Positions 32,444 to 58,285 of a stretch of 64,000 bases of DNA are shown piece after piece. This DNA is from Chloroflexota bacterium. Its GTDB lineage: Bacteria; Chloroflexota; Anaerolineae; Anaerolineales; UBA4823. The position numbers and the translations under genes were made by a program. Position 1 is the first letter of the stretch. Each line of letters starts with the position of its first letter. The notes below the pieces were generated by a model. It had not been told where the DNA came from and searched no databases. It saw only the letters and a program-made list of their open reading frames with translations. The stretch is taken from the NCBI GenBank assembly GCA_020349245.1, contig CP070764.1:4396372-4460371 (forward strand), given 5' to 3'.

Positions 32444-32521
32444 TTCTACTTTGACCTAGATCGCCCACTTGGTAGGTTTCTATACAGTTGGAATTGACAG
32501 AAACCCTTGCTGGCTTCGGGA

Positions 32522-34486: not shown

Positions 34487-34501
34487 ATCACCGATAATTT
34501 T

Positions 34502-35720: not shown

Positions 35721-35761
35721 AAATGTACTCCAATAATTTTCCCGGTTTTTCTTTCTGAAAT

Positions 35762-36271: not shown

Positions 36272-38337
36272 GGTTTTGCTGCCACGAAGCTCGTGCTGGT
36301 AGTCTTGACTCGCAACTCTTCAGGATCGCGATCAGGCCAGGCAGCGACAAGCGTGCCGAGAATGAATACAAAGCCTCCCAACCAAAGCCAATTGACGAGC
36401 GGGTTGTGGTAAATTTTGAACGTTGCACCTGCGGTTGAGATAGGCTGCCAGTCAACCAGAAGGATATAGAAATCGTCTTCCCAAGAGCTGCGAACACCGG
36501 GAATCGTCATTGGCTGTTGGGATTCGTAATAGTAATCTCTGCGGGGGTAGAGCTCACCGAGGAACTGATCATTCTTGTTGACACTCATTACTGCTCGGGC
36601 GACATTGCGCCCGTCAGCGGTATCAAAAACCGAAAGCGAATTAAATGTCACAGAATAATCCCCAAGCGTAATCTGCTCACCCTGTGAGATAGTGCCTTGG
36701 GTTTCACTCTGAAATACTTCGATTCCGATGATACCGATTGCCATCAGCACAACGCCCAGATGGATGATATAGCCGCCATACCTGCGCCGGTTACGGCCGG
36801 CTAAATGCCATAATGCAGCTGGAAAACGCTCGCCAGAGCGGCGGTGACGGGCCAGGGCGCCACGCCAGAATTCATACAGGGTTACTGCAGATACGAAGGC
36901 GCACAACCAGAAACCGAGAATCGCTGCCCAGTTGCGCATCCCTCCGACCAGGATAATGACTACGATGACCAATGAGGCGATGAAAGGCTTCCAAATCGCC
37001 TTACCCAAAGTCTTGGTGGAGGAATATCTCCAGGCAGCGAGGGGAGCGACTCCCATGAGAAGCAGCAGACCAGCGAACAGGGGTGCAGTTGCCCTTTCGT
37101 AAAATGGCGGCCCTACGGTGACTTTCTGACCGGTGAATATCTCCGAGATCAGTGGGAAAAGAACTCCCCAGAAGCAAACCACGAGAATACCAATAAAAAG
37201 TAAATTGTTGAGCAGAAACAAAGCTTCCCGGGATAGGAGAGATGACATCTGAGTCTGGGATTTCAACTCATTCCATCGCCGGAGTAATAATGACAGGGAG
37301 ACAATAAATGTCAGACCGATGAAAGCGAAGAAAACAGGACCGATGGCACTCTGTGCAAATGCATGGACTGAGGAAAGCACACCGGAGCGGGTCAAAAAAG
37401 TACCGAAAATTACCAATTCGTATGTCAGGATGATGAGGATCATGTTCCAGTGTTTCAACATGCCGCGTTTTTCCTGGATCATTACCGAATGCAGGAAAGC
37501 TGTGCCTGTTAACCAGGGCATAAATGCCGCGATCTCCACGGGGTCCCATCCCCAATAACCTCCCCAACCCAAGACATCGTACGCCCAACGCCCGCCTAGG
37601 ATTAAGCCGAGAGAGAGAAATAACCAGGCTACCAATGTCCAGCGCCGGGTGATGCGGATCCAGCGATCATCTGTACGACCCGTAACCAGGGCGGCAATCG
37701 CAAATGCATAAGGAATCACAAATGACACAAAACCCAGGTAGAGCATCGGTGGGTGGATGATCATGCCAGGATGGCGGAGAAGCGGGTTCAGCCCGCTTCC
37801 ATCGGCTGCTATATAAGGAACCGAACCGGCTGGCTGTAGCATACCGGTGGTAAACTGCCCGGTGGCTGACTGCCAAATTCGAACAAACGGGTTTTCAATG
37901 AATATACTCAGAGAAAGGAAGAAAGCCAGCGTGACCAGGGAGACAATGATCACCCAGGGTAAAAATTCCTGGTCTCGCTTCCATTTTCGCAGCGTGACAG
38001 CCGAAGCGAAAGCTGCCAACAACCAAGACCAAAAAACCAGCGAGCCTGCCTGACCACCCCATAAAGCTGTGACCTTCAAGTAAAGGGGCATGCTGTTGCT
38101 AGTCACACTGGCGACATACTCTACTTCGTAGGCATTGGTGACCAGGAGATAAATGATGCTCAACGCTGAGACCGTCACCAGCGGGAAGGTCAGCAGCATG
38201 GCGCTGCGCGCACTGGCAATCCAGCGGTGGTCCTTTTTTCGAGCTCCATAGTATGCTGCACTGATTCCAAAAAGAGATATTAAAAACGTGATGATAAGTG
38301 CGCCGTAACCTATATTTGCTACCATAAATATCTCCAA
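36268..38337 (-). CDS. ccmF: cytochrome c haem lyase CcmF
   Basis: 689-aa polytopic protein with the WWD motif WGGYWGWDPVE. Confidence 0.92.
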   Translation of the reverse strand: MEIFMVANIGYGALIITFLISLFGISAAYYGARKKDHRWIASARSAMLLTFPLVTVSALSIIYLLVTNAYEVEYVASVTSNSMPLYLKVTALWGGQAGSLVFWSWLLAAFASAVTLRKWKRDQEFLPWVIIVSLVTLAFFLSLSIFIENPFVRIWQSATGQFTTGMLQPAGSVPYIAADGSGLNPLLRHPGMIIHPPMLYLGFVSFVIPYAFAIAALVTGRTDDRWIRITRRWTLVAWLFLSLGLILGGRWAYDVLGWGGYWGWDPVEIAAFMPWLTGTAFLHSVMIQEKRGMLKHWNMILIILTYELVIFGTFLTRSGVLSSVHAFAQSAIGPVFFAFIGLTFIVSLSLLLRRWNELKSQTQMSSLLSREALFLLNNLLFIGILVVCFWGVLFPLISEIFTGQKVTVGPPFYERATAPLFAGLLLLMGVAPLAAWRYSSTKTLGKAIWKPFIASLVIVVIILVGGMRNWAAILGFWLCAFVSAVTLYEFWRGALARHRRSGERFPAALWHLAGRNRRRYGGYIIHLGVVLMAIGIIGIEVFQSETQGTISQGEQITLGDYSVTFNSLSVFDTADGRNVARAVMSVNKNDQFLGELYPRRDYYYESQQPMTIPGVRSSWEDDFYILLVDWQPISTAGATFKIYHNPLVNWLWLGGFVFILGTLVAAWPDRDPEELRVKTTSTSFVAAKP

Positions 38338-38352
38338 TTTTATTTACATGCA

Positions 38353-38388
38353 ATGCGTGAAACGTATCCCAGCTTACGTTTCACGCAT
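38353..38388 (-). promoter_or_regulatory. perfect 13-bp inverted repeat between ccmE and ccmF
   Basis: atgcgtgaaacgt (38353-38365) pairs with acgtttcacgcat (38376-38388) across a 10-nt loop, inside the 83-bp ccmE-ccmF spacer. There is no U-tract, so it is not a classic terminator. Confidence 0.4.
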
Positions 38389-38420
38389 CATTAGATTCGA
38401 AACTATGTTAGGTCAACACA

Positions 38421-38948
38421 TTAACCTTCAGCTTGCTCCGGCACCACCTCTTCGTATTTTGTGGGGCATTTAAGCAATAATTCGTCCGCGTAGAAAACGC
38501 CATCCTCCGCTAGTTTTCCAGTCATTATGGCTTGGGCTTCATGTCGTAATAGATCAGGCTTGGGTCCAATGTAAACGACCTCCATGCGAGCTCGGTTTGG
38601 GTCGTTTACGGCATCATATAAGACTTTCGCTAATCCACCTTGTGCTTCGATCTCGCTATTATCTCCCGGCACATGGGCGACTGTAAATTTCAAAGTCAAT
38701 GATTGCGGGTCATAAGCAACAGTGTCCCCTATCACGGCGCCAGACACACGCACATCGCGGCCGATATCACTACCTTTTCGCTCGGTTAATTCATCAACGG
38801 TCAGGAAATACTGGGCACTTGCCTGGGTTGAAGTAACAATTAAATAAATAATAGCTGCTACGATCAACAATCCACCTACAATGAACTTTACCCGTCCACC
38901 TGAACCAGTTTGTGTTGGGACGCTGCTATCAGACTCTTGATTTGTCAT
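38421..38948 (-). CDS. ccmE: haem chaperone CcmE, CxxxY variant
   Basis: N-terminal TM plus an OB-fold (RVSGAV...FTV.H; VVYIGPKPDLLRHEAQAIMTGKL..DGVFYADELLLKCPTKYEE). The haem-binding position reads KCPTKY rather than KHxxxY. Confidence 0.85.
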   Translation of the reverse strand: MTNQESDSSVPTQTGSGGRVKFIVGGLLIVAAIIYLIVTSTQASAQYFLTVDELTERKGSDIGRDVRVSGAVIGDTVAYDPQSLTLKFTVAHVPGDNSEIEAQGGLAKVLYDAVNDPNRARMEVVYIGPKPDLLRHEAQAIMTGKLAEDGVFYADELLLKCPTKYEEVVPEQAEG

Positions 38949-39060: not shown

Positions 39061-39750
39061 TTATTTCAGATCGATTAAACCCGTGCGGATCGCAAATTTT
39101 ACCAATTCTGTTGAAGAATGTAAATTTAATTTATGCATGATCCGCTCACGGTGTCTGGCAACGGTCTTGGGGCTGATGCCCAGCTGTTCGCCTATTTGGT
39201 TATTTGTATAACCCTCAGCAACCGCTTCTAGAACCTGAAGTTCTCGATGGCTGAGAATATCCAATCCTTTCTCTTCATGTTCATGATTTTCAAAATGTCT
39301 CACCCCGGGTGGTGTCTGGCTTAACAATCGCCGGTAATCCTCCAGCAGCCAGCGAGCCAGCGCAGGTTGCAGATAGACGTTGCCAAGTGCCACACAGCGG
39401 ATCGCTGTAACCAGTTCCTCGGCTGCGACTTGCTTGGTTACATACCCGGAGGCGCCTGCAGAGAGCATCTCAAACAGGTATTGTTTGTCCTCGTGTACGG
39501 TTAAGGCTAATATGTAGCAGTCGGCATCCAACTCCCTCAACCGCCGGGTAGCCTCCAAGCCATCCATCTCCGGCATGGTGATATCCATCACCACCACGTC
39601 TGGATTAGTATTCAATGCTTGTTCGAGCGCTTCCTGTCCGCTGCTGGCTTCAGCGACAACTTCTAAACCATCCTGGGTATCCAGAAAAGACTTCAAACCA
39701 GTGCGGACAATATCATGGTCATCAACGAGCATCAGGCGGATTGTGGTCAT
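39061..39750 (-). CDS. NarL/LuxR-family response regulator
   Basis: Receiver (MLVDDHDIV, DVVVMDITMPEMDG) plus a LuxR HTH (LSHRELQVLEAVAEGYTNNQIGEQLGISPKTV). The likely start is the ATG at 39750 (MTTIRLML); the track start is 39798. Confidence 0.9.
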   Translation of the reverse strand: MTTIRLMLVDDHDIVRTGLKSFLDTQDGLEVVAEASSGQEALEQALNTNPDVVVMDITMPEMDGLEATRRLRELDADCYILALTVHEDKQYLFEMLSAGASGYVTKQVAAEELVTAIRCVALGNVYLQPALARWLLEDYRRLLSQTPPGVRHFENHEHEEKGLDILSHRELQVLEAVAEGYTNNQIGEQLGISPKTVARHRERIMHKLNLHSSTELVKFAIRTGLIDLK

Positions 39751-41269
39751 CGCGCTTCTCCTCGATCTCTGAATATTGAGAACTGAAGGTGGGGACAATC
39801 ACTTCCACAATCGTCCCCCCACCCTCAGGACTGAAAATCTTCAACTGTCCTTGAACCGAGTCAACTCGCTCCCGCATACCTTCCAGACCCCAGCCACGTT
39901 CTTGAGAGTTAGTGGCAGCCTGGCTGTTTATCCCGATACCATGATCGCGGATCACCATTACCACTCGCTCCGAGTTGAAAGCTAATTCGAGATCTGCCTG
40001 GTCGCATTTTGCATGGCGGATAACATTGGTTAAGGCTTCCTGGGCGACACGGAAAAACACGGTCTCCACCAGTGGATCCAGGCGTTGACGTTTTCCATCA
40101 ATTATTAAATTTACCTGTAAACCGGCTCTCTTGTATTCTTCCTCAGCCAAATACTGTAAGGCTGGCACCAAGCCCAGATCATCCAATTGTGCTGGTCGCA
40201 GGTCATGCACCAAGCGGTAGATCCCATCAGACATTTGGCGTGATAGGGATTGTAAATCGTTAATCAGATCCAATGTGGCAGCTTGCTTTGGGAGCAAGTT
40301 TTTCAAGGTTGCCAGATTGAGGCTGAGTGCAGTCAAGAATTGAGCCGTTTCATCATGCAGTTCTCTAGCAATGCGGCTGCGTTCTTCCTCCTGGGCGATA
40401 ACAGTGTGGCGCAGGAGCTCCCGCCGCATTAATTCCCGCTCTTCTAAATCTTTGCGAACCTGCTCAAGTGCTTCCAGCCTTTGCTTTTGGGCAGAGAGGA
40501 GCTGCTCTTCTCGCTCCTGATCAACGACTTGGATGGCCTGGATCAGGTTGAAGGTCACCAAGACAGCCATGGCTGCTCGTACCAATTGGATTGGGAAACT
40601 GAAAATGTCGATGAATACAGCGGAATTGATCCAAGTTGCGGGAAACAAGTTGATTGGCCCAACGAAAATCTGGGTCAATCCATACAATACAAAACCCACA
40701 GCTGCCCAACGGAAGCGCTTGGTCAGATCTTTTCGTCCTTCTTTGGTTACCTGCTGGGCGCGTTTACGCAATCCCAACCCGGCTAAAATGCCTCCCGGGA
40801 CTGCCAGGAAGTAGCGAGCCAATGTATCCGCTGGAGCAAGTTGTAAATCTGGGCGTAGTTGTGTGACGCTGAATAGGACAAAAACATAAATGAGCAGCAT
40901 GCCGCACAAGATCAGCACCGGAACCCCGAAACCTTTTTGAGAATCGGCCAGCATCAGTAAACCAAAATAGATCAATGGAATAAAAGAGACAACCAACAGA
41001 GTGTATCGCAACCAGATCAATTGTTCAGGAAAGGGAACCCCCAACCATACACCCTGGAGGAGCAGCATCTCGAACCACTCATGCATGCCATGCAATATGC
41101 CGAAAACCGCCAGCGGCTGAAGAACGCGTCGATCTGCCAGGCGTGGTGCCCGCATCGTTTCCAAACCAAGGGCGATGCCCATGCTGAAGAAGGCCAATCC
41201 ATAGACGAAGAAGATGAGTACGATGTCCCATTGCATGGTCTTCATCAATCCTTTCAACCTCTGCCACAC
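39722..41269 (-). CDS. membrane sensor histidine kinase (polytopic N-terminus, HisKA_3, HATPase_c)
   Basis: About 6-7 TM helices, a coiled coil, H-box ARELHDETAQ, and ATPase motifs NVIRHA, DHGIGI and GWGLEGMRER. Confidence 0.88.
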   Translation of the reverse strand: MWQRLKGLMKTMQWDIVLIFFVYGLAFFSMGIALGLETMRAPRLADRRVLQPLAVFGILHGMHEWFEMLLLQGVWLGVPFPEQLIWLRYTLLVVSFIPLIYFGLLMLADSQKGFGVPVLILCGMLLIYVFVLFSVTQLRPDLQLAPADTLARYFLAVPGGILAGLGLRKRAQQVTKEGRKDLTKRFRWAAVGFVLYGLTQIFVGPINLFPATWINSAVFIDIFSFPIQLVRAAMAVLVTFNLIQAIQVVDQEREEQLLSAQKQRLEALEQVRKDLEERELMRRELLRHTVIAQEEERSRIARELHDETAQFLTALSLNLATLKNLLPKQAATLDLINDLQSLSRQMSDGIYRLVHDLRPAQLDDLGLVPALQYLAEEEYKRAGLQVNLIIDGKRQRLDPLVETVFFRVAQEALTNVIRHAKCDQADLELAFNSERVVMVIRDHGIGINSQAATNSQERGWGLEGMRERVDSVQGQLKIFSPEGGGTIVEVIVPTFSSQYSEIEEKRDDHNPPDAR

Positions 41270-41512
41270 TCATCGGCAATGAGGTGTGAAATTATTGTAC
41301 AGCAAACTAGAAAAACTATGCCTGTCTTCAATGTGACTTTTGTCACGTAAGCAGCATTACATATTCACTCATCTGGGGTTAAGTATTGGGGTAAAATAAC
41401 TATCCAAAATTGAGTGACCAGCTCAAAAATAACAATATTTCCGATGAATTTTGATGGCAAACTATCCCAATTTCTTCTGGAAGCAAGGGTCGTTGACCTG
41501 CGAGGTGGATGA

Positions 41513-42775
41513 ATGATGAAGCAGATAAAGTTGATCACTCTGCTGGGTATATTGATGATCGTCGCAGCAAGTTTAGCGGCTTGTGCAGGCTCTGAAGGAC
41601 CTGCGGGTGCCAGTGGACCAGCGGGACCACCTGGACCAGAAGGACCTCAGGGTCCCCCAGGCCCGGAAGGTCCAGTAGGCCCAGTTGGACCCGCTGGAGA
41701 AGCAGGTGCTGGGTCTTTGGGTGCAGAGTATGTTGGCAGTACCGTGTGCAGCGGTTGCCACCTGGACACCTATGAGGTGTTTATGAAATCGGGTCATGCA
41801 TATGAGCTCACCCAGGTAGTTAATGGTCAGCCACCAGAATATCCGTTCACTGAAGTAGCTGAATTACCAGAAGGCTATACCTGGGAAGATGTCTCCTATG
41901 TGATCGGTGGTTATAACTGGAAAGCCCGTTTTCTCAACCAGGATGGGTACATAATCACTGACGCGCCAGGCTCATCAGGGAATGAGGAATATCTCAACCA
42001 GTACAACTTTGCTAATCCAATCGTTGGCACTGAGGCGGGCGGGGTTACCTATCACTCCGGTGAAGAGAACCTGCCTTATGACTGCGGTAGTTGCCACACA
42101 ACAGGTTACAGCCTGACGGGAAATCAGGATGATTTGCCTGGTTTGGTAGGTACCTGGGCTGAATCCGGCATCATGTGTGAGGCGTGTCACGGTCCGGGTG
42201 GTCTGCATATGCAGAATCCCCAGGGTGTACAGATGACTATCGATCGGGGTGCCGAGATGTGCGGTCAGTGCCACCGCCGCGGGGAGATCGAGTCCCTCAA
42301 TGCCAGCGAGGGATTCATTCAGCACCATGAACAATATGGGGATCTCTTCCCGGGAAAGCACGCCGTTCTTGATTGTGTCATCTGCCATGATCCGCATTCG
42401 GGTGTGGTCCAGCTCCGGCAGGATGAAGAGGTACCTACCATGCGCACCCAGTGTGAAAATTGCCACCTGGAACAGGCTCAATTCCAGGACTCGCTGATCC
42501 ACCCGGCGGCAGCTGCCTGCATTGACTGCCACATGCCGCGGATGATTAAATCAGCGGTTGGAGATGCTGAAAAATTCACCGGCGATATCCGCACTCACCA
42601 GGTGCGCATCAATCCTCGACAGATTGAGCAGTTCACAGAGGATAGCAGCACCTCCCTGCCTGAGATAGGGTTAAATTTTGCTTGCCGGCACTGCCATGGT
42701 GTTACGGCTTCAGAGAAAACAGACGAGGAGCTGATCGATAAAGCTGTTGGCTACCATACACCGACGGAGCAGTAA
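41513..42775 (+). CDS. octahaem c-type cytochrome lipoprotein with collagen-like N-terminal stalk
   Basis: Lipobox SLAAC, then 14 uninterrupted G-X-Y triplets. Eight CXXCH motifs: CSGCH, CGSCH, CEACH, CGQCH, CVICH, CENCH, CIDCH, CRHCH. The CEACHGPGGLH context is cytochrome c554-family-like. Confidence 0.88.
   Translation: MMKQIKLITLLGILMIVAASLAACAGSEGPAGASGPAGPPGPEGPQGPPGPEGPVGPVGPAGEAGAGSLGAEYVGSTVCSGCHLDTYEVFMKSGHAYELTQVVNGQPPEYPFTEVAELPEGYTWEDVSYVIGGYNWKARFLNQDGYIITDAPGSSGNEEYLNQYNFANPIVGTEAGGVTYHSGEENLPYDCGSCHTTGYSLTGNQDDLPGLVGTWAESGIMCEACHGPGGLHMQNPQGVQMTIDRGAEMCGQCHRRGEIESLNASEGFIQHHEQYGDLFPGKHAVLDCVICHDPHSGVVQLRQDEEVPTMRTQCENCHLEQAQFQDSLIHPAAAACIDCHMPRMIKSAVGDAEKFTGDIRTHQVRINPRQIEQFTEDSSTSLPEIGLNFACRHCHGVTASEKTDEELIDKAVGYHTPTEQ
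41588..41713 (+). repeat. collagen-like (Gly-X-Y)14 coding repeat
   Basis: [42 protein letters not shown], starting 2 residues after the lipobox Cys. Confidence 0.9.
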
Positions 42776-42813
42776 TTTTCTCCCCTTAAGGTGTCCTTTT
42801 GAACCATCAATAA

Positions 42814-42836
42814 CGGGCCGGAGAAATACCGGCCCG
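42814..42836 (+). promoter_or_regulatory. GC-rich hairpin between the octahaem and NapC-like genes
   Basis: cgggccgg pairs with ccggcccg across loop agaaata. The T-tract is weak, so this is a possible attenuator or mRNA-processing/stability element. Its sequence is related to the hairpin at 52224-52248. Confidence 0.4.
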
Positions 42837-42885
42837 CTTGACTATCATATATAATATTGGGGTAATTCCCAAGTGGAGTTATTTT

Positions 42886-44595
42886 ATGAGAAAGTATTGG
42901 CAGAGGATCAAATCCGGTTTAAAGAATTTCTTCTTTCCCCCAGTAGGTTCACCTCGCTGGGTGCGTATTCTGCCTTATGCCGTGTTGGGTGTCTTAACTT
43001 TAATCGTCTTAACCGGTGCGGTATATGGTTGGGAGTATACGAATTCGCCAGAATTCTGTGGTACGGCGTGCCACACGATGCCTCCTGAATTCACCAGCTA
43101 CCTCACTTCCCCACATGCGCGCATTGATTGTGTCGATTGCCATATTGGGAAAGGTTTTCTCGCCACGCGCGTCTCCCGTAAAGCTGGAGACCTCCGGCAC
43201 ATCGTCGCTACCGCGTTCAATACGTACGAATTTCCCATCCGTGCCCGCCAGCTGCAGCCTGCCCGAGAGACCTGCGAGAAGTGCCACTTTCCTGAAAAGT
43301 TCTCGGATGACAGCTTGCGGGAGATCAAGCATTTCCAACCGAATAAAGATAACACCCCGCTGACTACCTACTTGGTGTTGAAGACCGGCGGCGGCAGCAA
43401 GCGCCAGGGACTGGGTCGTGGTATCCATTGGCATATTGAGAACAAGATCGAATATTTTCCTGTTGATCCAGAGGAACAGGAAATCCCATACATACGCGTT
43501 TACGAAGATGATGGCACGGTCACAGAATATATTGATATCGAATCCGATTTCGATCCACAGGATGTTGCACCCGAGGATATGGTTGAGATGGACTGCATCA
43601 CCTGCCACAACCGCATCACGCACTTGGTGAAGACACCCCAGGAAACGGTCAATGAAATGATGAATCGGGGGATAATCGATCCGGAAATCCCCGAGATACG
43701 CAGGATAGCCACCGAAACGTACGGACAGATTTATGAAACAACCCAAGTAGGCTTGGATGGCATTGCCAGTATCTCCAGCTTCTATGAGACCTATTACCCA
43801 GAATATTACGCAGAGAATAAGGATAAGATCGATACAGCGATCACCGCTCTCCAAGAGGCGTATGCACAAAGTGTATACCCGGAACAGAACTCCGATTGGA
43901 CTACCCATCCCAACAATATAGGTCACAGCGACACGTCGGGCTGCTTCCGCTGTCATGGCGGAAAACATCTCAATGCCGATGATGAAGCGATCCGGCTTGA
44001 GTGCAATTTATGTCATTCGATCCCTGTCATCGCTGGACCTGGAGACTTTGTCTCTCAGATCGAGATCAGCCGGGGTCCTGAGCCCGACAACCACAAGAAT
44101 CCCAACTGGATCACCCTGCATCGGGATGTATTTGATCCGACCTGCAGCAATTGTCATTCCACCGACAATCCCGGTGGAATCGACAATACTTCTTTTTGTT
44201 CGAACAGCGCCTGCCACGGGAATGTCTGGGAATACGCGGGCTTTGATGCACCTGGCTTGCGCGAGATACTGCTTGATCAATTGCCGCCAGAACCCACGCC
44301 CATCGCTCCACCTGAAGGCGAGGCACTTACTTTCACGGGCACGATCGGTCCCCTGTTAGAGAGCAGATGCGGTGCCTGCCATGGAAGATCAAACAGCTTG
44401 AAGGGTTTGGATCTGACGTCCTATGCCAGTCTGATCGATGGTGGCGAAAGCGGTCCAGCGATCATAATCAATGATCCTGCCAACAGTTTGATATTAATCG
44501 TCCAGACCGGTGAGCAACCCCATTTCGCCCAGCTCACTTTGGATGAACTCACGCTTTTGGAAGAGTGGATCGCCAACGGTGCACCCGAGGAGTGA
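42886..44595 (+). CDS. membrane-anchored NapC/NirT-like multihaem cytochrome (8 CXXCH plus 1 CX4CH) with a C-terminal PSCyt1-like domain
   Basis: N-terminal TM, then CGTACH, CVDCH, CEKCH (NapC/NirT-like spacing), CITCH, CFRCH, CNLCH, CSNCH, CSNSACH and CGACH. The start is the ATG at 42886 after gtggag; the track start at 42838 is upstream. Confidence 0.85.
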   Translation: MRKYWQRIKSGLKNFFFPPVGSPRWVRILPYAVLGVLTLIVLTGAVYGWEYTNSPEFCGTACHTMPPEFTSYLTSPHARIDCVDCHIGKGFLATRVSRKAGDLRHIVATAFNTYEFPIRARQLQPARETCEKCHFPEKFSDDSLREIKHFQPNKDNTPLTTYLVLKTGGGSKRQGLGRGIHWHIENKIEYFPVDPEEQEIPYIRVYEDDGTVTEYIDIESDFDPQDVAPEDMVEMDCITCHNRITHLVKTPQETVNEMMNRGIIDPEIPEIRRIATETYGQIYETTQVGLDGIASISSFYETYYPEYYAENKDKIDTAITALQEAYAQSVYPEQNSDWTTHPNNIGHSDTSGCFRCHGGKHLNADDEAIRLECNLCHSIPVIAGPGDFVSQIEISRGPEPDNHKNPNWITLHRDVFDPTCSNCHSTDNPGGIDNTSFCSNSACHGNVWEYAGFDAPGLREILLDQLPPEPTPIAPPEGEALTFTGTIGPLLESRCGACHGRSNSLKGLDLTSYASLIDGGESGPAIIINDPANSLILIVQTGEQPHFAQLTLDELTLLEEWIANGAPEE

Positions 44596-44704
44596 ATCAT
44601 ATAAATGAATCAGGATTAATCTTGAAGATATTATAAAAGCCTTATAATATTTTGATGATCAGTGCGTGAGTTCGACGAGTTGGTATACGCCTAAGGAGAT
44701 AAAT

Positions 44705-45190
44705 ATGGAAGAAGAGAAAGACCAACTTAGCCGACGGAACTTTCTGGCGATTGCGACCGGAGCCATTGGAGGATTGATCGGAATTGTGATGGCTATCCCC
44801 GCAGTGGCTTATGTCGTCGGTCCTGCATTACAACGCAGGACAGCAGAAAACTGGGTCCGGCTCGGTCCAACTTCAAAAGTTGAGCTTGGAATCCCCACCC
44901 TTTTCAAAACCATCATAGAAAGTCAAACTGGTTGGATCGTTGCTGAGGAAGAAATCTCAGTTTATGTGTTGACTGAAGATGGGCGGGAATATATTGCCCT
45001 CTCAAACATCTGCACTCACCTCGGTTGCCGGGTTCGTTGGATTACCGACCAGGGACAATATTTCTGTCCTTGTCACAACGCAGCCTTCGATAAAACCGGG
45101 GAAGTCGTAGCAGGACCTCCGCCAAGTCCGCTCGATCGCTACGAGACCAAGGTTGAGGAAGATCAATTGTATATCCTGTTGGGAGGTTGA
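44705..45190 (+). CDS. qcrA: Rieske [2Fe-2S] subunit of a cytochrome bc-type complex, Tat signal
   Basis: SRRNFLAIATGAIGG twin-arginine/TM region, plus CTHLGC and CPCHNAAF cluster boxes. The RBS aaggag at 44693 precedes the ATG at 44705. Confidence 0.9.
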   Translation: MEEEKDQLSRRNFLAIATGAIGGLIGIVMAIPAVAYVVGPALQRRTAENWVRLGPTSKVELGIPTLFKTIIESQTGWIVAEEEISVYVLTEDGREYIALSNICTHLGCRVRWITDQGQYFCPCHNAAFDKTGEVVAGPPPSPLDRYETKVEEDQLYILLGG

Positions 45191-45191
45191 G

Positions 45192-45851
45192 ATGAGTGCT
45201 GGAATTGGTAATTGGCTTGATGAACGCATCGGTTGGCGCAAGGTCTGGGATGCCATTTTTCTGCGCAAGATCCCCAAGGTAAATTGGTTTTACACCCTGG
45301 GCAGCGCGACCCTCTTCGTGGCAATTCTGCAGGGGGTGACAGGTATTTTACTGACCATTTATTATGTCCCCACTCCGGACCACGCCTATGACAGCGTCCA
45401 GTTTATTACTACCCAGGTTGCCGGCGGCTGGTTTGTCCGCGGCGTCCATCACTGGGGGGCCAGCGCCATGGTGCTGCTCTCAGTACTGCACATGCTGCGA
45501 GTCATCCTTTACGGGGCATACAAATTCCCGCGTGAGGTGACGTGGTTCACGGGAGTAGGGCTGTTGCTGGTTGTGATGGGGTTTGGATTTACCGGTTACC
45601 TTCTACCCTGGGATCAGAAAGCGTATTGGGCGACTACGGTTGGGACCCGCATCGCGGGGGTAGCTCCTTTCATTGGTGAACCGATCCTGCGCATCATGCG
45701 CGGTGGGGAGGAGCTGTCCGCAGTTACCTTGGCGCGATTCTTTGGCACCCACGTCTGGGTCTTGCCGACAATCCTTTTGCTGCTGCTCGGAATCCATATG
45801 TACCTAGTGATCCGCCTCGGTATCAGCGCGGTACCAAAGAGGGAGGAGTAG
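45192..45851 (+). CDS. qcrB: cytochrome b6-type subunit (N-terminal four-helix half of cytochrome b)
   Basis: Haem-ligand helices (FVRGVHHWGASAMV..LHMLR; FFGTHVWVLP), TGYLLPWDQKAYWAT, 219 aa. The ATG at 45192 lies 1 nt after the Rieske stop. Confidence 0.9.
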   Translation: MSAGIGNWLDERIGWRKVWDAIFLRKIPKVNWFYTLGSATLFVAILQGVTGILLTIYYVPTPDHAYDSVQFITTQVAGGWFVRGVHHWGASAMVLLSVLHMLRVILYGAYKFPREVTWFTGVGLLLVVMGFGFTGYLLPWDQKAYWATTVGTRIAGVAPFIGEPILRIMRGGEELSAVTLARFFGTHVWVLPTILLLLLGIHMYLVIRLGISAVPKREE

Positions 45852-45854
45852 AAC

Positions 45855-47978
45855 ATGAAAGAGAAAGAGCGAAAGGAGTATCTCGAGAAGTACAATAAAG
45901 AGAAGGAGAAAGGAGTTCCCTTTTTCCCAGATATCCTCTTTAAAGACGCGGTTGTCTCCCTGGTGATATTTATCGCCCTGGTGGCTCTGGCATACTTTGT
46001 TGGTGCACCTCTGGAACCACGCGCCGATCCGGCAGACACCAGTTACACGCCGCGTCCAGAGTGGTATTTCTTATTCCTGTTCCAGCTGCTGAAATACTTC
46101 CCCGGATCCTTGGAAGTGATTGGCGTTGTTATCATCCCCACCTTGGCGATCATCCTTTTGATCGTCCTTCCATTTATCGATCGTTCAGCCAAACGGCATT
46201 TTATGCGCCGACCAGTGATCCTGGGATTAGTAGGATTGAGTACAGCTGGGATTTTACTGCTCACCTACCAATCCTACCGGGAGATCCCCCCACCCCTGGA
46301 AATTGTCGGAGGTGACCTGACAGCGCTCCTGTACACGGAGAACTGCGCTCCTTGTCACGGACCTTCGCTAACCGTACCGCAAGGTGTCAACTTACACGAG
46401 ATTATCGCCCAGGGGCGCCATGAGGATATGCCCGCCTGGAGTGGAGATCTCACGTCGGATGAAATTGATGCTCTGGCAGGCTTTATTATTTCGCCAGGAG
46501 GCAGCCAGCTGTTCACTGAGAATTGCAGCGAATGTCATGATGTGGCTGATCTGGTCGCCAGCGATCCGATAACCTTAAGGGAGTCTATCCGGCTCGGCAC
46601 GGAATTTGGATCCCATGCAGAGGCGGAGGTTCCGGATTGGACGACAACTATCAACCCCGAAGACCAGACAAAGCTGCTCAATTTCCTGGTCGCTCCTGAT
46701 GGACAACGCTTGTTTGCCACCAATTGTGCCCCCTGCCACGGTCAATCAGTTGCCTATGCTGGAGGCGAGGAAGAATTATTGGAAACGATCAGCCAAGGTG
46801 GAATGCACCTGGATATGCCCCCCTGGCGGGATATGCTGGACGATTCCGAATTGGATATTCTCGCTCGCTATGTGGTCAATCCATCGAATACACCGGAAGG
46901 GGTGGAGCTTTTTCAAACCAATTGTGCAAGTTGCCATGGTGAACGAATTCCCTCCGCTGAAGATGTAGAAGTGGCCCGGCAGATCATCGCTGAGGGCGGG
47001 GGTCACGAAACCATGCCAGTGTGGGGGGAAGTCCTCACCCCTGAACAGCTGGATGCCCTGGTTAACTTTACCGTGGCAGCTGCATCGGGTACCTCCGTTG
47101 AAGTTGGCCAGGAACTCTATGTTCAAAATTGTGCCCCCTGTCATGGAGAATTCGGTGAAGGTGGTCCTAACCCCTCCCGGGCAGGCGATATCATCTTCCC
47201 GATCAGCACCGCAGACTACCTCAAGACCAGGGATGATTTCACCTTGCGCTCCGTCATCGCTCAAGGTCAGCCTAATTTCGGCATGTCTCCTTTTGGCAGC
47301 GCTTTTGGAGGTCCTTTGGAAGAGGAGAACATCGATGCAATCGTGGCATATATTCGATCCTGGGAAGCCAATCCTCCAGTCGAATTGCCACCTGAAGTTG
47401 TTATTGATCTGGGTCAACAGGAAACCGTCACCCTGGACACGAAACAAATTTATGACCAGCTTTGCTCACAATGTCATGGGATTAATGGGGAAGGTGGTGT
47501 CGGACCATCGTTTGAAAACGCGCAATTTCAAGCTACCCGAACCGACACCCAGCTATTTAATGCCATCAATATCGGTCACGAAGCGACTTCCATGATCGGT
47601 TGGGGTGAAGTTTTGAGTGCTGAGCAGATCCAGCAGATCGTTCAGCTTATCCGCGAATTTCGAACTTCTCCAGGTGTCAGTCAACCGCCAACTGGTGGGG
47701 TATCATTTTCTTCCGATGTGATGCCCTTATTTGAGGCGAAGTGCGCTGCGTGCCATGGGAATTTTGGTGGTTGGGATGCCAGTACCTATACTACGGTTCT
47801 GGGAACAGGGAATAACGCTCCCGTGATTATCCCCGGTGACCCAGATAATAGCCTGTTGGCGCAGAAAATGGTTGGCACGCAATCGATTGGCAATATCATG
47901 CCGCCAGCGGGTTTGTTACCAGATGATGAGGTTCAGCTTATCCTGGATTGGATAGCAGAAGGAGCACTCGATAATTAA
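45855..47978 (+). CDS. qcrC: cytochrome b subunit IV fused to seven c-type cytochrome domains (QcrC-like, heptahaem)
   Basis: The N-terminus carries the Qo-site PEWY motif (RPEWYFLFLFQLLK) and 3 TM helices. Then CAPCH, CSECH, CAPCH, CASCH, CAPCH, CSQCH, CAACH; the last sits in a PSCyt1-like module. Confidence 0.88.
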   Translation: MKEKERKEYLEKYNKEKEKGVPFFPDILFKDAVVSLVIFIALVALAYFVGAPLEPRADPADTSYTPRPEWYFLFLFQLLKYFPGSLEVIGVVIIPTLAIILLIVLPFIDRSAKRHFMRRPVILGLVGLSTAGILLLTYQSYREIPPPLEIVGGDLTALLYTENCAPCHGPSLTVPQGVNLHEIIAQGRHEDMPAWSGDLTSDEIDALAGFIISPGGSQLFTENCSECHDVADLVASDPITLRESIRLGTEFGSHAEAEVPDWTTTINPEDQTKLLNFLVAPDGQRLFATNCAPCHGQSVAYAGGEEELLETISQGGMHLDMPPWRDMLDDSELDILARYVVNPSNTPEGVELFQTNCASCHGERIPSAEDVEVARQIIAEGGGHETMPVWGEVLTPEQLDALVNFTVAAASGTSVEVGQELYVQNCAPCHGEFGEGGPNPSRAGDIIFPISTADYLKTRDDFTLRSVIAQGQPNFGMSPFGSAFGGPLEEENIDAIVAYIRSWEANPPVELPPEVVIDLGQQETVTLDTKQIYDQLCSQCHGINGEGGVGPSFENAQFQATRTDTQLFNAINIGHEATSMIGWGEVLSAEQIQQIVQLIREFRTSPGVSQPPTGGVSFSSDVMPLFEAKCAACHGNFGGWDASTYTTVLGTGNNAPVIIPGDPDNSLLAQKMVGTQSIGNIMPPAGLLPDDEVQLILDWIAEGALDN

Positions 47979-48053
47979 TCAATTTATAATTGTGATATCA
48001 ACAAATGATTTACAGGTGATAATTTTTCGGTAAGCGATTTAATAGTAAATAGC

Positions 48054-49568
48054 GTGGATTCACATACTAAAATTGGAAACCGGTTCCTCAAGTCAAATTT
48101 ACGCGCGAAGATCACACTTGGCGTGGTTATCCCTTTGACTTTAATCCTGGGTCTCTTCACGCTTATCGAAGCTTCCCGCCATCGGGATGTTGAAATCTAC
48201 AACTTGACCCTCCTTGCTTCGCAATCTGGAAAGGTGATCGAAAGTTCCTTGCGTAATGCAATGATGGAATCCAATTTTTCCGAGATGCAAAGGATTTTGG
48301 ATGCAGTCGGGGACACTGGTGATTTTAACGTCGTTTATTTGTTGGATAGCAATGGAAAAATTATCTTCTCTCCACATGGGCAGGACGTCGGTAAGCGCTT
48401 AGACAACAGCCATCCTACCTGCCAGGAATGCCATAGATTATCCCCAGAAGCCAGACCGAGCAGTGTTGTGGTTGCAGATGATGGTCAACGAGTCTTCCGG
48501 AGCATGTATCCAATTCGGAACTCCCCAGAGTGCATGACATGTCACGATCCCCAGGAACCCATTATTGGGCTGTTGCTGACGGATATCCCTTTTGCAAAGG
48601 TGGAATCGGCTTTGGGAGCAGACCTCCGGGAAAATCTTTTATGGTGGTTAGGAACGATACTGGCAACAGTTGTCGTGGTTAATGTTTCCCTAAGCAAAAT
48701 TGTCATTGAAAGATTGCAAAGATTATCGCAGGCCTTGACTGGATTTGGTCAAGATCGATTGGGTCTCCGCTTGCCAACCGATGCTCCTGACGAGATTGGT
48801 CAGCTATCAGAAGCCTTTAATAACATGAGCCGGCGTATTGAAGAAGAGGTCGCCGAGAATCTTGCCCTATCCGATCATCTATATCATCAGAGCCAACAGC
48901 GTGGTGAGCTGCTCAAACACTTGATCACTGCACAAGAGGACGAACGCAAGCGGGTTGCACGGGAACTCCATGATGATTTGGGCCAGGCCCTGGGGGCACT
49001 TTCCCTGCAAACCGAGGCTGTCGAACGGCTCATCGACAGTAATCCAGAAGGTGCCATCCAGCAGTTGCGCTTAACCCGGGAACTTATCGATGGCACCACT
49101 GAAAGCATGTATGAGCTGATTTTAGATTTACGCCCTTCTGTACTTGATGATCTTGGGTTACTATCTGCGCTGCAAGCTCAGGCAGAAAGGTGTTTAGAAG
49201 GCAGCTCAATTCAATTCGAGCTGAATACAGACGGCCTGACAGAACGGCTTGAGCCAGAACTTGAGACGACCCTATACAGAATTTACCAAGAAACCCTGAA
49301 CAATGCCAGGCGTCATTCTGGTGCAAGGAATATCTCTATCACCATCTCGATCCATAACGGATATCTCGAGAGTGAGATCCGGGATGATGGTCACGGTTTC
49401 GATTTACAAGAATTGGATACCGACCGCGGTCATCACCATGGATGGGGATTAATCGGGATCAAGGAGCGAGTCAGCCAATGGGGAGGACAGATTGAGATTA
49501 TCACAGATCCAGAGAATGGAACCCTTATCAAATTACGTTTTCCCTTGCTGGAGGTAAATGGTGGCTGA
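48054..49568 (+). CDS. sensor histidine kinase with a periplasmic dihaem-c-type (2 x CXXCH) sensor domain, HAMP, HisKA_3, HATPase_c
   Basis: TM1 (aa about 20-40). The extracytoplasmic domain contains CQECH (48420-48434) and CMTCH (48531-48545). Then TM2, HAMP, H-box ARELHDDLGQ, NNARRHS and GWGLIGIKER. Confidence 0.88.
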   Translation: MDSHTKIGNRFLKSNLRAKITLGVVIPLTLILGLFTLIEASRHRDVEIYNLTLLASQSGKVIESSLRNAMMESNFSEMQRILDAVGDTGDFNVVYLLDSNGKIIFSPHGQDVGKRLDNSHPTCQECHRLSPEARPSSVVVADDGQRVFRSMYPIRNSPECMTCHDPQEPIIGLLLTDIPFAKVESALGADLRENLLWWLGTILATVVVVNVSLSKIVIERLQRLSQALTGFGQDRLGLRLPTDAPDEIGQLSEAFNNMSRRIEEEVAENLALSDHLYHQSQQRGELLKHLITAQEDERKRVARELHDDLGQALGALSLQTEAVERLIDSNPEGAIQQLRLTRELIDGTTESMYELILDLRPSVLDDLGLLSALQAQAERCLEGSSIQFELNTDGLTERLEPELETTLYRIYQETLNNARRHSGARNISITISIHNGYLESEIRDDGHGFDLQELDTDRGHHHGWGLIGIKERVSQWGGQIEIITDPENGTLIKLRFPLLEVNGG

Positions 49569-50211
49569 TCAAATAGCCGTACTGATTGCCGATGATCATA
49601 CAATCGTCCGCTCGGGTGTGCGCTTATTGCTGGAAGCTGAAATGGACATTAAAGTTGTAGGTGAGGCATTAAATGGCCAGGAGGCGCTCAAATTGGCGGA
49701 AGAGCTGCAGCCAGATGTCGTGCTTATGGATATCTCCATGCCTGAGATGGATGGACTGGAAGCGACCAGGGAAATCAAGTCTCGTTTTCCCCAAATCAAT
49801 GTACTTATACTGACCATGCACAGGTCTGACGAATACTTTTTTAATGTTTTGAAAGCTGGTGCATCTGGTTATATTCTGAAGGGTGCCAAGACCAGTGAAC
49901 TTATCGAGGCCGTGCATATCGTCCAGCGGGGCGAGGTTTTCCTGTACCCATCGATGACCCAAAAACTGGTTCAGGGATATTTACAGTTGGCAGATTGGGA
50001 AAGTGAGGGGGAAGATCCATTGAGTCCCCGGGAAAAAGAGATTTTCAAGCTTTTAGCTGAAGGTTACAGCAACAAGGAGATCGCTGATAAGCTGGTAATC
50101 AGCCCGAGTACTGTTCATTCACACCGCGGCAATTTGATGGAAAAGCTGGGTCTTCAGAATCGGCGAGATTTGATTCAATATGCCAGAAAGCAAGGTCTCT
50201 TGAAAGAGTAA
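49558..50211 (+). CDS. NarL/LuxR-family response regulator
   Basis: Receiver (LIADDHTIV, DVVLMDISMPEMDG) plus a LuxR HTH (LSPREKEIFKLLAEGYSNKEIADKLVISPSTV). It overlaps the kinase stop. Confidence 0.92.
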   Translation: MVADQIAVLIADDHTIVRSGVRLLLEAEMDIKVVGEALNGQEALKLAEELQPDVVLMDISMPEMDGLEATREIKSRFPQINVLILTMHRSDEYFFNVLKAGASGYILKGAKTSELIEAVHIVQRGEVFLYPSMTQKLVQGYLQLADWESEGEDPLSPREKEIFKLLAEGYSNKEIADKLVISPSTVHSHRGNLMEKLGLQNRRDLIQYARKQGLLKE

Positions 50212-50368: not shown

Positions 50369-50710
50369 GTGATGATGGCCAACCGTCAGGTTTACGTGAT
50401 ATGGGTGAACCCACTATTCCATGATAGTTTGCACCAGTTGTTGGCTCATGCTGAAATCGAATGGGTGGGTGCTGCCTCAGATTTCTCAACCGCTGTAGAA
50501 GAGATCTCTCACCTCCATCCTGACACAATTCTCATCGAAGAGATGGCTGGAGCGACGACCACTTCTGCTTTCATGGAAATCGTGGAAAAGTTTCAGTGGG
50601 ATTTGCGGGTGGTGGGTGTCAGTCTCAGGGATAACCAAATGAGTGTTTTCCAGCATGCACAACAGACGGTGGGGCAACCAGAGGATTTGATACGGTTAAT
50701 TATCCAATGA
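50369..50710 (+). CDS. receiver-like (pseudo-receiver) domain protein, 113 aa
   Basis: CheY-like layout (VYVIWVNPLF...VGAASDFSTAVEEI..LHPDTILIEE), but the phospho-acceptor position reads E (LIEE), not D, and the N-terminal acidic pair is missing. The start is one of GTG/ATG/ATG at 50369-50377. Confidence 0.45.
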   Translation: MMMANRQVYVIWVNPLFHDSLHQLLAHAEIEWVGAASDFSTAVEEISHLHPDTILIEEMAGATTTSAFMEIVEKFQWDLRVVGVSLRDNQMSVFQHAQQTVGQPEDLIRLIIQ

Positions 50711-50847: not shown

Positions 50848-52194
50848 ATGTTTAAAAAATTCATGCTTATTACGGGACTATTGTTGTTTGCCACCATCGT
50901 TTTGGTGGGGTGTGCTGGATCAGAAGGTGCTGAAGGCCCTCCTGGCCCTCAGGGTCCTGCTGGACCAGCTGGCCCTGCAGGTCCACCAGGATCTGGGGGA
51001 ACAGAGCTGACTGAAGATCAGCTTGCTGCGTTAGAAACGGCAGGTAACCTAGGTGGGATCCAATTCCCTGGTTTGGATGAGGTCCGCAGAGGTTGTCCAG
51101 CCTGTCATGTCCTTGTAAATGAGGAGACTGGACAATACACCTTGCCATATGAAGCTCATGAGAGGGCAGAAGCGCGCGGAAAAGAGCATCCAGAAGTCGC
51201 CCCCGATGGTACCTCGCTCGCCGCAACCGAGGATGTAAAGGTGACCACCTGCCTGCAGTGTCATGGGGCAGGAACCGGAGACCGTGCTGGTAAAGGAGTT
51301 ATCGCGCCGTTATCCCTGCGGGATATCGTCCATCCCGCTCATATGTACAGCCAGTGGTTTAAGCTGCACTACGGTGGCAACTGCTTTACCTGCCATAATG
51401 TGGATGGTGAAGGGAATTGGGAGCTTCTCACCGAGAAAGTTGAGGTGAATGAGAAAGGTGTCCCAGATCCTGAAGCGCTGCCAATCCCAGGTGCTGTTCC
51501 CATTGGGGAAGGGGCTACATCAAGCGCACTGTCCGGTTCAGTAGCTGCTGGCGGCCGGTTGTACGACAAATGGTGGACCGAAGCTGGTGTGGATGAGCCC
51601 AGCGGGGATCAGCCTGTGTGGGCAACCCAAACCACAAACACACGCAGCGGTGGGGATACCTGGCGCTGTAAAGAATGTCATGGATGGGATTACATGGGTG
51701 CTGCGGGTGCCTATGGTTCTGGATCTCACTTCACCGGTTTCCCGGGCGTATTCGATGTCCAATCGGAATCCGCTGAGGCGCTTGTGGCAATTCTGGATGG
51801 CAGTGCAAATCCAGATCACGACTTTTCTGCCATGGGAGAAGAAGCTCTCAACAACCTGGTGACATTCCTCAAAACGGGTTTGATTGATATGTCCACTCTG
51901 GTGGATGCCGAGACAAAAGCACCCGTGGGTGGCGATGCCGCGAATGGCGAGGCACTTTATGCTGCCTGTGCCGGCTGTCATGGTGAGGATGGACGAGCAG
52001 TCAACTTCGGTGATGATGAAGAACCGGAATATGTAGCAACAATCGCACTGGACAATCCCTGGGAATTCTTACATAAGGTGAGAGCGGGACAACCTGGCAC
52101 AGCCATGCCCGCCTCCTTGGATCTAGGATGGAGTACAGGTGAATTGCTCGATTTATTAGCTTTCGCCCAAACCTTGCCTGTTGAAGCACCCTAA
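50848..52194 (+). CDS. pentahaem c-type cytochrome lipoprotein with collagen-like stalk
   Basis: Lipobox LVGC, 10 G-X-Y triplets, then CPACH, CLQCH, CFTCH, CKECH, CAGCH. Confidence 0.88.
   Translation: MFKKFMLITGLLLFATIVLVGCAGSEGAEGPPGPQGPAGPAGPAGPPGSGGTELTEDQLAALETAGNLGGIQFPGLDEVRRGCPACHVLVNEETGQYTLPYEAHERAEARGKEHPEVAPDGTSLAATEDVKVTTCLQCHGAGTGDRAGKGVIAPLSLRDIVHPAHMYSQWFKLHYGGNCFTCHNVDGEGNWELLTEKVEVNEKGVPDPEALPIPGAVPIGEGATSSALSGSVAAGGRLYDKWWTEAGVDEPSGDQPVWATQTTNTRSGGDTWRCKECHGWDYMGAAGAYGSGSHFTGFPGVFDVQSESAEALVAILDGSANPDHDFSAMGEEALNNLVTFLKTGLIDMSTLVDAETKAPVGGDAANGEALYAACAGCHGEDGRAVNFGDDEEPEYVATIALDNPWEFLHKVRAGQPGTAMPASLDLGWSTGELLDLLAFAQTLPVEAP
50917..51006 (+). repeat. collagen-like (Gly-X-Y)10 coding repeat
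   Basis: [30 protein letters not shown], starting 2 residues after the lipobox Cys. Confidence 0.9.
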
Positions 52195-52248: not shown

Positions 52249-52280
52249 AATGCAATATATGCTTGCCTTATGAGAATAGT

Positions 52281-52796: not shown

Positions 52797-52804
52797 AAAA
52801 ATTT

Positions 52805-57129: not shown

Positions 57130-57245
57130 TTGTGCATTTTACGGCAGGAGACTACATTGGTAGAAATTCCTGGTATTGCTTGCCAGATGATATGATGAGA
57201 CGAGTATTCAAGAAAAAAATATAACGAAGCGATAGATGAAAATCA

Positions 57246-58276: not shown

Positions 58277-58285
58277 AAGGTAAAG

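Follow-up and report, generated by a model that had tools for sequence, protein, structure and literature searches.

The 64,000-nucleotide stretch of Chloroflexota bacterium contig CP070764.1 analysed here (the window) contains, at 41513–47978 on the forward strand, five co-directional open reading frames (ORFs), designated A to E, in which a Rieske protein and a split, b6-type cytochrome b stand among multihaem cytochromes c and in which subunit IV of the cytochrome b continues into a chain of c-type haem domains. The reading that we prefer, with a probability of about 0.6, is that C, D and E would form a Q-cycle menaquinol oxidase that feeds a network of tethered haems outside the membrane, and that the nonahaem cytochrome B is a likely separate, NrfH-type link to the quinol pool. 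We established the identities of the parts, an order compatible with membrane topology, their conservation and their synteny. The initial annotation of this DNA had described an elaborated Rieske/cytochrome b complex with its own long haem chain; the ORF listing agrees with its five genes, and profile and Protein Data Bank (PDB) matches of C, D and E support the complex and show it to be of the b6 type. The likely starts of B (ATG 42886), C (ATG 44705) and D (ATG 45192) were set from ribosome-binding sites and the N-termini of homologues, and the cluster comprises the following features.

41513..42775, + strand: A, OcwA-like octahaem lipoprotein on a collagen-like stalk; accessory, outside the conserved core
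42814..42836, + strand: GC-rich hairpin in the A–B spacer, 8-bp stem CGGGCCGG/CCGGCCCG
42886..44595, + strand: B, membrane-anchored nonahaem cytochrome c, NrfH/NapC-like
44705..45190, + strand: C, Rieske [2Fe-2S] subunit, Tat signal/anchor not cleaved (GTG 44666 as an alternative start further upstream)
45192..45851, + strand: D, four-helix cytochrome b6-type subunit, haems bL and bH
45855..46301, + strand: E, N-terminal part, subunit IV with PEWY and three transmembrane (TM) helices
46302..47978, + strand: E, C-terminal part, seven monohaem c domains (PF13442 and PSCyt1) on the outer face

The Rieske/cytochrome b6 core and its fused haem chain

Haem-binding motifs are confined to three of the five genes: A has eight CXXCH, B has seven CXXCH and the two variants CGTACH (CX3CH) and CSNSACH (CX4CH), E has seven CXXCH, and C and D have none. 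The total of 24 reported earlier was correct, and its division into 23 CXXCH and one CX4CH is corrected here to 22 CXXCH, one CX3CH and one CX4CH. The 22 CXXCH lie in the 2,076 codons of the five genes, compared with 66 in the 127,996 six-frame codons of the whole window, an enrichment that is far from chance. Every motif Cys and His is invariant in 48 homologues of B and 46 of E at 63–85% identity, including all seven CXXCH of E. From the density of the motifs and the invariance of their residues we conclude that the clustering is not accidental.

The Rieske protein C carries the Tat signal previously noted (SRRNFLA), together with the boxes CTHLGC and CPCH (PF00355, E=1.1e-12). It matches UCR_Fe-S_N (E=4.9e-5) and the PetC models of cytochrome b6f (E ~1e-20), and among PDB entries the b6f-type Rieske proteins (E=4e-16); its Tat motif is followed by a hydrophobic helix, which makes the N-terminus a membrane anchor. 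Box II reads CPCHNAAF and is devoid of the Ser and Tyr after the box that raise the potential in high-potential Rieske proteins. Because these two residues are missing, the sequence of C fits the low-potential, menaquinol-type class. The classes of Rieske potential described in the literature include a menaquinol class that is “low, about 150 mV” (PMC4122944).

The cytochrome b is split in b6 style, as had been described, with D (219 residues) and the first 149 residues of E in separate ORFs 3 nt apart. D matches PF00033 (E=4.5e-49) and spinach cytochrome b6 (E=1e-52); the four haem His align at b6 positions 86, 100, 187 and 202, and the 14 residues between the His of helix D are the same spacing as in b6. 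On the NCBIfam models it scored 230 bits for cytochrome b6 and 214 bits for ExtP, both under the cut-off. The Cys for haem cn/ci (b6 Cys35) is absent, FYC of b6 being aligned with FYT of D, and Thr occupies this position in the D homologues of all related loci.

The fusion of a PEWY-containing subunit IV to seven successive monohaem domains is likewise upheld: PF00032 (E=2.5e-11) is followed by six class-I domains, d1–d6 (PF13442), and one domain of the PSCyt1 type, d7. The subunit IV part, which contains three hydrophobic helices, matches the subunit IV chains of b6f complexes (E ~1e-7) and the C-terminal halves of cytochrome b (E ~1e-12) in the PDB, and P68-E69-W70-Y71 is invariant in the 46 sequences. 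As is established for Bacillus QcrC, the C-terminus of subunit IV is on the outer side of the membrane. A conserved candidate Met ligand, in MPxW-like motifs, is present in d1, d3, d4, d5, d6 and d7; d2 has no Met and has the invariant His254 instead. Domain d7 is 36% identical to the C-terminal PSCyt1 domain of B (E=7e-19). An AlphaFold2 model of E from the 46-sequence alignment (pLDDT 64.8, pTM 0.40) matched in Foldseek only single class-I cytochrome c domains of the c552 type and dihaem QcrC/CcoP chains.

To survey the haem number, we searched 1.84 billion representatives with subunit IV alone and counted the motifs of the relatives found. Those of full length carry 2, 3, 4, 6, 7 and 8 haems, and among the 120 closest E homologues 116 have seven, two have eight, one has ten and one has six. 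The haem chain of the E family is modular, with 2–10 domains. The two-haem form consists of subunit IV, d5 and d7, and the three-haem form adds d6; in the six- and seven-haem forms a block of small paralogous domains, d1–d4, is inserted between subunit IV and d5, and the eight- and ten-haem forms contain repeats of d7 or of d4/d6. Within the block, d1, d3 and d4 are mutually 38–44% identical and d2 is more divergent; the best-conserved domains of E are d5 and d7. Variation in chain length is what one would predict of a spacer or wire and not of a catalytic site. In two “chromosome” records of metagenome-assembled genomes (MAGs), 100-N scaffold gaps immediately precede the c-domain repeats in the E homologue (L014:9900-9999 and L019:9899-9998; L numbers designate related loci), and the genes upstream are missing from these records. 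Internal domain repeats thus seem to break assemblies, and copy numbers in short-read MAGs are possibly unreliable.

Conserved gene order and the multihaem partners

The nonahaem cytochrome B consists of one N-terminal TM helix, an NrfH/NapC-like module, a non-haem insert, further haems and a C-terminal PSCyt1 domain (E=2.8e-6). Its NapC/NirT-like N-terminus, recognised from the start, is borne out by PF03264 (E=7.9e-10), the NrfH model TIGR03153 (E=1e-15) and Desulfovibrio vulgaris NrfH (2j7a, E=3.7e-8). The PF03264 match scores 39.2 bits, compared with a Pfam cut-off of 24.1, and covers only profile positions 13–100 of 174; the scores on the equivalog models lie under their cut-offs (NrfH, 58 bits <134; NapC/NirT, 19 bits <311), and only the first three haems align with 2j7a. 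The first motif of B, CGTACH-T-M, is aligned with CXXCH-I-M of NrfH, so that the Met is kept, and haem 1 lies about 11 residues after the TM helix. The nine motifs, Met66 and R99-K100-A101-G102-D103 are invariant in the 48 homologues; the basic pair R99/K100 aligns with NrfH Lys82, and a His stands where NrfH has Asp89. The conserved NrfH-like residues are consistent with the “second quinol entry point” that had been proposed for B. There are 11 conserved non-motif His for the nine haems, which points to mostly bis-His ligation in B. The database contains an exact, called gene of 569 residues for this protein (P0121). The AlphaFold2 model of B (48-sequence alignment; pLDDT 55.8, pTM 0.29) returned only noise in Foldseek, with a best E=1.1.

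We compared the surroundings of 21 genome loci found through E and of further loci retrieved independently through B. The order B–Rieske–b6–E is present in 13 of the 21 loci found through E and in three found through B, giving 16 loci, and it is kept down to about 58–60% E identity. Gene A adjoins B in L002–L005, L015 and L023, chiefly the closest relatives (L023 being a further case), lies about 5 kb away, beyond other genes, in L007 and L022, and is missing from L006, L010, L011, L013 and L024; among the three loci found through B, one lacks A altogether. The five-gene operon first proposed is therefore not the conserved unit: the conserved part is B–C–D–E, and A, whose presence varies from locus to locus, is an accessory.

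The proposed linkage of the NapC-like gene to the Rieske/cytochrome b cluster applies to these 16 loci and fails in two, L016 and L018 (about 51% identity), which have Rieske, b6 and a seven-haem E, no B and no nearby cytochromes. Because C–D–E stands alone in these loci, the fused chain of E must hold the acceptor for the Rieske protein, and B is not needed for the core. We conclude from this comparison that C–D–E is a self-sufficient core, and B a strongly but not obligatorily linked module, associated with the core rather than an obligatory subunit of it. Both loci are on high-GC contigs, labelled Saprospiraceae and Actinomycetota, which would reflect either mis-binning or horizontal spread outside the Chloroflexota.

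These loci also bear on whether B could be the equivalent of cytochrome f/c1, accepting electrons from the Rieske protein as in anammox bacteria, with the E chain as a downstream relay. Anammox b6-type complexes do replace cytochrome f by a TM-anchored hexa- or octahaem cytochrome (PMC12954380), and B lies directly upstream of the Rieske gene. However, C–D–E occurs without B in L016 and L018, and for this reason we rank the idea low, as highly unlikely. Moreover, regulators separate B from C–D–E in one relative, a c domain directly follows subunit IV in the short family members, as in Bacillus QcrC, and the probable bis-His haems of B would be uphill from the Rieske cluster.

The spacing of the genes was described as tight, which is true of C–D–E (C–D 1 nt, D–E 3 nt) and not of A–B (110 nt) or B–C (109 nt; 16 nt in L023). 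Ribosome-binding sites of the form GGAG precede B and C, that of C lying 8 nt upstream of ATG 44705. The A–B spacer (42776–42885) folds with a minimum free energy of −31.6 kcal/mol (z = −2.27 relative to shuffles); its hairpin has no T-tract, the consensus scan did not call an intrinsic terminator there, and a terminator, an attenuator or a processing element are each possible. Consensus promoter and terminator scans of 41000–48500 were at or below shuffle expectation (6 vs 7.3; 9 vs 6.9) and are uninformative on operon structure. A TTGAAG-15 nt-TATAAT element in the B–C spacer was spotted by eye and is not relied on.

Both proteins belong to large families. Among the scored candidates there were 2,737 matches to E (about 705 residues) at E<=1e-10, of which the top 120 are 54–100% identical and which, where named, come from Anaerolineales, and 5,580 matches to B (about 565 residues). 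The closest relatives are Anaerolineales MAGs with about 80% protein identity. The combination had been called unusual. It is in fact very common in Anaerolineales metagenomes, and multihaem-decorated Rieske/cytochrome b clusters were already known; what stands is that we found no published description of it in the literature searched.

The octahaem protein A has a lipobox, LAAC, followed by 14 uninterrupted G-X-Y triplets (Pfam Collagen, E=5e-6). Only its N-terminal part, residues 60–283, matches residues 3–223 of OcwA from Thermincola potens (PDB 6I5B, E=2.8e-20). Including A, four multihaem lipoproteins of the window (41513–42775, 50848–52194, 59682–60773 and 61229–62326) have a lipobox Cys followed by 11–14 G-X-Y triplets, mostly G-P-X, a stalk that would measure about 10–12 nm if extended or triple-helical. 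Such stalks recur in relatives (L007:953-2185, L010:12579-13592, L013:12665-13726 and L022:646-1887), and no description of collagen-like stalks on cytochromes was found in the literature searched. A collagen triple helix would imply trimeric cytochromes.

Proposed routes of electron flow

In the mechanism that we favour, C, D and E would together make up the core of a menaquinol oxidoreductase with a Rieske/cytochrome b design of the b6 type. Quinol would be oxidised at the Qo site (PEWY); one electron would return to quinone through haems bL and bH in a proton-motive Q cycle, and the other would pass through the low-potential-type Rieske cluster to the c haem domains carried by subunit IV of E on the outer face. 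The fused chain would replace both cytochrome f/c1 and soluble cytochrome c. Tethered multihaem lipoproteins, A among them, would receive electrons from it and pass them to an acceptor on or outside the cell surface. B would most likely provide a second, non-Q-cycle link from the quinone pool to the same external cytochrome network. An outward-facing chain is favoured by the likeness of A to the surface reductase OcwA, by the four stalked lipoproteins, the ACIII-like operon and the ccm genes nearby, by split CbcL-like modules in relatives and by the presumed absence of an outer membrane from Anaerolineales. In this scheme the direction of flow, the association of B with C–D–E, the quinone type, the haem potentials and the acceptor are what we infer.

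Several observations weigh against this reading. The first motif of B is CX3CH, its NrfH score is under the cut-off and NrfH Asp89 is His in B, so that a quinol activity of B is not assured. A and B are each separated by about 110 nt from their neighbours in the window, and in the relative P0066 the order is B–kinase–regulator–Rieske–b6–E, which splits B from C–D–E. The models of B and E are too poor to reveal a continuous haem path or a contact between the two proteins. In the short family members the domain adjoining subunit IV is d5-like, not d1-like, which makes the order of electron flow along the seven-haem chain uncertain. Finally, His/Met class-I domains are typical of carriers to oxidases and nitrogen-oxide reductases, and the acceptor may be an ordinary membrane enzyme.

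The last point leads to an alternative, in which C–D–E is the ordinary complex III of a single-membrane bacterium, the fused domains feed haem-copper oxidases or nitrogen-oxide reductases, and B and A are merely neighbours from other pathways. The domains of E are class I and mostly His/Met, like the carriers c552, CcoP and QcrC, in Gram-positive bacteria every cytochrome c is tethered or fused, as established for Bacillus, and in L016 and L018 C–D–E has no neighbouring cytochromes at all. The bc complexes of Anaerolineae/Thermofonsia are also treated in the literature as part of aerobic respiration (PMC5826079). However, one or two domains suffice in Bacillus and Actinobacteria, and 7–10 variable copies are hard to explain by carrier replacement. 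The B–C–D–E synteny, which reaches to about 58–60% E identity and was recovered independently from B, also argues against mere neighbourhood, and the 64-kb window has no oxidase gene and is rich in multihaem lipoproteins of the low-potential type. We therefore regard an ordinary complex III as rather unlikely.

An extension of the favoured mechanism, which we consider distinctly unlikely, is that B, C, D and E assemble into one supercomplex, in which quinol would react at two sites and two haem wires, unequal in potential, would lead outward. The His/Met chain on E may be fed by the Rieske protein, and the bis-His chain on B by menaquinol or by haem bL at the outer side, and the cell could then switch or bifurcate between energy-conserving and non-conserving routes according to the potential of the acceptor. 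The homologous PSCyt1 ends of B and E may join the two wires at a common partner. Such an assembly would correspond, in fused form and in a single-membrane cell, to what Geobacter has as a system of separate parts, ImcH/CbcL/CbcBA.

Genomic surroundings and comparison with known systems

The first ~25 kb of the window are housekeeping genes, and a cytochrome island extends from about 30 kb onward. Within one 32-kb island lie the four stalked multihaem lipoproteins, an operon resembling alternative complex III (ACIII) and ccm genes for system I. The ccm cluster (30266–38948, − strand) comprises ccmA/B/C-like genes, a thioredoxin-like protein, CcmH, CcmF, CcmE and a zinc-ribbon protein, and embedded in it (32522–34486) is a 654-residue protein that has two class-I cytochrome c domains and, towards its C-terminus, a large region with no assignment. 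Anaerolineales are thought to be without an outer membrane (PMC7399161), and porin-cytochrome genes are therefore not expected. Two two-component systems, assigned from Pfam matches, flank genes A to E.

39061..41269, − strand: upstream divergent two-component system, polytopic HisKA_3 kinase and NarL-type regulator
48054..50211, + strand: downstream two-component system, HisKA_3 kinase and NarL/GerE-type regulator

The downstream kinase (48054–49568) has two CXXCH, at residues 123 and 160, in an extracytoplasmic sensor domain between two TM helices, and gives weak Tll0287-like and single-Cache matches. The pair follows E at 52–84% identity in L001–L004, L014 and L019, and more distant pairs (about 30% kinase identity) follow E in L008, L009 and L011; both CXXCH are kept in the kinases of L008 and L011. 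The kinase is probably a c-haem redox sensor, and the pair a redox-responsive regulator of the cluster. The upstream system is kept upstream in L002–L006, L015, L021 and L023 and is found on the downstream side of the cluster in L010 and L013. The downstream regulator is separated from the multihaem lipoprotein that comes next by a 113-residue ORF (50369–50710) with no Pfam match, whose homologues are 71–79% identical in L002–L004 and L014 and 45% identical in L019.

The ACIII-like operon (52263–59332) encodes a pentahaem ActA, a Tat-signal ActB split into molybdopterin-like and 4Fe-4S genes, an NrfD-like ActC, ActD, a monohaem ActE and then a trihaem class-I lipoprotein; no second NrfD-like gene (ActF) was seen in it. 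Together with the Rieske/cytochrome b cluster, it gives the island two quinol:cytochrome c complexes. Two tandem paralogous hexahaem lipoproteins follow (59682–60773 and 61229–62326), which are identical at 262 of 369 aligned positions and differ hardly at all in the signal and the stalk, apparently as the result of a recent duplication. In distant Anaerolineales relatives, two pairs of a nonahaem c and a dihaem b subunit (Ni_hydr_CYTB) lie directly upstream of B (L013:2745-7052, L010:2723-7057, L007:2479-7013 and L022:2150-6912), with NrfC/NrfD-like genes further upstream. The second dihaem b subunit ends in a PSCyt1 haem domain, as do B and E, and the pairs appear to be a split version of the Geobacter CbcL design.

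The ACIII-like complex is of interest for the reverse direction of flow, in which an external donor such as Fe(II), a cathode or a partner cell would supply surface cytochromes and the E chain, and the core would be driven backwards by the proton-motive force to reduce menaquinone. Reverse operation has reportedly been proposed for the PetI bc1 complex of Acidithiobacillus ferrooxidans. In the present island, the ACIII-like complex could run the downhill branch, and the high-potential-type His/Met domains would suit donors at the level of Fe(II). A Chloroflexi isolate with both cathodic and anodic electron transfer is also on record, according to its citation in PMC7399161. On the other hand, the sequence gives no sign of direction, there is no Cyc2-type or other known iron oxidase within the window, and the low-potential-type Rieske box together with menaquinone would make the uphill step large. 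Electron uptake is thus very unlikely, and we retain the outward, menaquinol-oxidising reading.

In sediments, digesters and activated sludge, few bacteria are as abundant as the Anaerolineales, which have repeatedly been suspected of extracellular or interspecies electron transfer; we know of no described route from their quinone pool to the exterior. The CymA/ImcH-type routes of Gram-negative electrogens are not thought to be proton-motive. Were the chain driven by the Rieske/b core, the Q cycle would make this route proton-motive, and estimates of the energy yield of Anaerolineales would change. The variable number of fused haems (2–10) and the collagen-like stalks would offer a natural series for studying the fit between haem wires and the thickness of the envelope. 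Heterologous expression, structure determination and metatranscriptomics are feasible, because the family has many well-conserved members. In the literature searched we found no description of a fused-chain Rieske/b6 architecture in Chloroflexi/Anaerolineae, although an earlier mention is possible; papers on Anaerolineae mention only a “bc complex” (PMC5826079). What is new is a widespread, undescribed architecture, whereas subunit IV–cytochrome c fusions and the multihaem-decorated Rieske/b clusters of Geobacter, anammox bacteria and Methanoperedens were known.

Among the closest known designs is the Bacillus-type QcrABC, with which the cluster shares the gene order Rieske, four-helix b6, subunit IV, a C-terminal class-I cytochrome c fusion, the menaquinol-type Rieske box and a single-membrane host. 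It differs in having seven haem domains (2–10 in the family) rather than one, a terminal PSCyt1 domain, Thr in place of the haem ci Cys and a conserved NrfH-like nonahaem partner gene. We rejected membership of the Bacillus QcrABC family, because E has seven c domains, not exactly one, and D has no haem cn/ci Cys. Fusions of subunit IV to cytochrome c are known from the Bacillus type and from a “PEWY-cyt c” clade (PMC4122944).

In Geobacter, the extKLMNOPQS cluster encodes a Rieske protein (ExtO), a b6-like ExtP and a subunit-IV-like ExtQ, with cytochromes of 5, 12, 10 and 4 haems, the last counted as two CXXCH in an earlier report (PMC2825233, PMC5877670). Both clusters place a split b6-type core among multihaem cytochromes, including a lipoprotein, in a cytochrome-rich organism, and the function of Ext is likewise unproven. 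Geobacter, however, has separate cytochromes, a porin and a rhodanese, whereas in our cluster subunit IV itself carries the chain and a porin is absent, as the lack of an outer membrane would predict. D scored 214 bits on ExtP (cut-off 290) and E 23.7 bits on ExtQ (cut-off 150), and membership of ExtOPQ was rejected. The anammox complexes of Kuenenia (Kuste4569-4574 and Kustd1480-1485; PMC12954380) resemble ours in a b6-like cytochrome b with subunit IV and in the replacement of cytochrome f by a multihaem c. In our cluster, by contrast, subunit IV has three TM helices, not five, the haem cn Cys is absent and the chain is fused rather than a separate anchored protein. The genes at 39–52 kb contain no NAD(P) oxidoreductase or HAO-like octahaem domain, and with only three helices in E, anammox-type membership was rejected as well.

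The archaeon Methanoperedens has a Rieske/cytochrome b cluster with two pentahaem cytochromes, which is co-expressed and for which an electron route to the pseudoperiplasm was proposed (PMC4683180). It shares with our cluster a Rieske/b core grouped with extra multihaem cytochromes and the lack of an outer membrane; its cytochromes are separate, and neither an NrfH-like module nor a fused class-I chain has been reported for it. That multihaem cytochromes can accept electrons from Rieske proteins is an idea of Dibrova 2013, as relayed in a passage of a citing paper.

Among the multihaem partners, B has in common with NrfH, NapC, CymA and ImcH the N-terminal TM helix and a haem 1 near the membrane, and with NrfH also a Met two residues after the motif His, a basic residue at the Lys82 position and the spacing of the first three haems. 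It departs from the NrfH/NapC family in the CX3CH of haem 1, the His for Asp89, about 100 inserted residues ahead of haem 4, a total of nine haems and the PSCyt1 end domain. In ImcH, too, extra haems are appended, as in B. Protein A resembles OcwA, with which it aligns over about 220 residues that span at least its first four haem motifs (PDB 6I5B; PMC6703420), and would likewise be a multihaem protein exposed outside the membrane of a single-membrane bacterium; it differs in having eight haems instead of nine and 420 residues instead of 526, and in being a lipoprotein on a 14-triplet collagen-like stalk. OcwA is a multihaem terminal reductase at the cell surface of the single-membrane bacterium Thermincola potens (PMC6703420).

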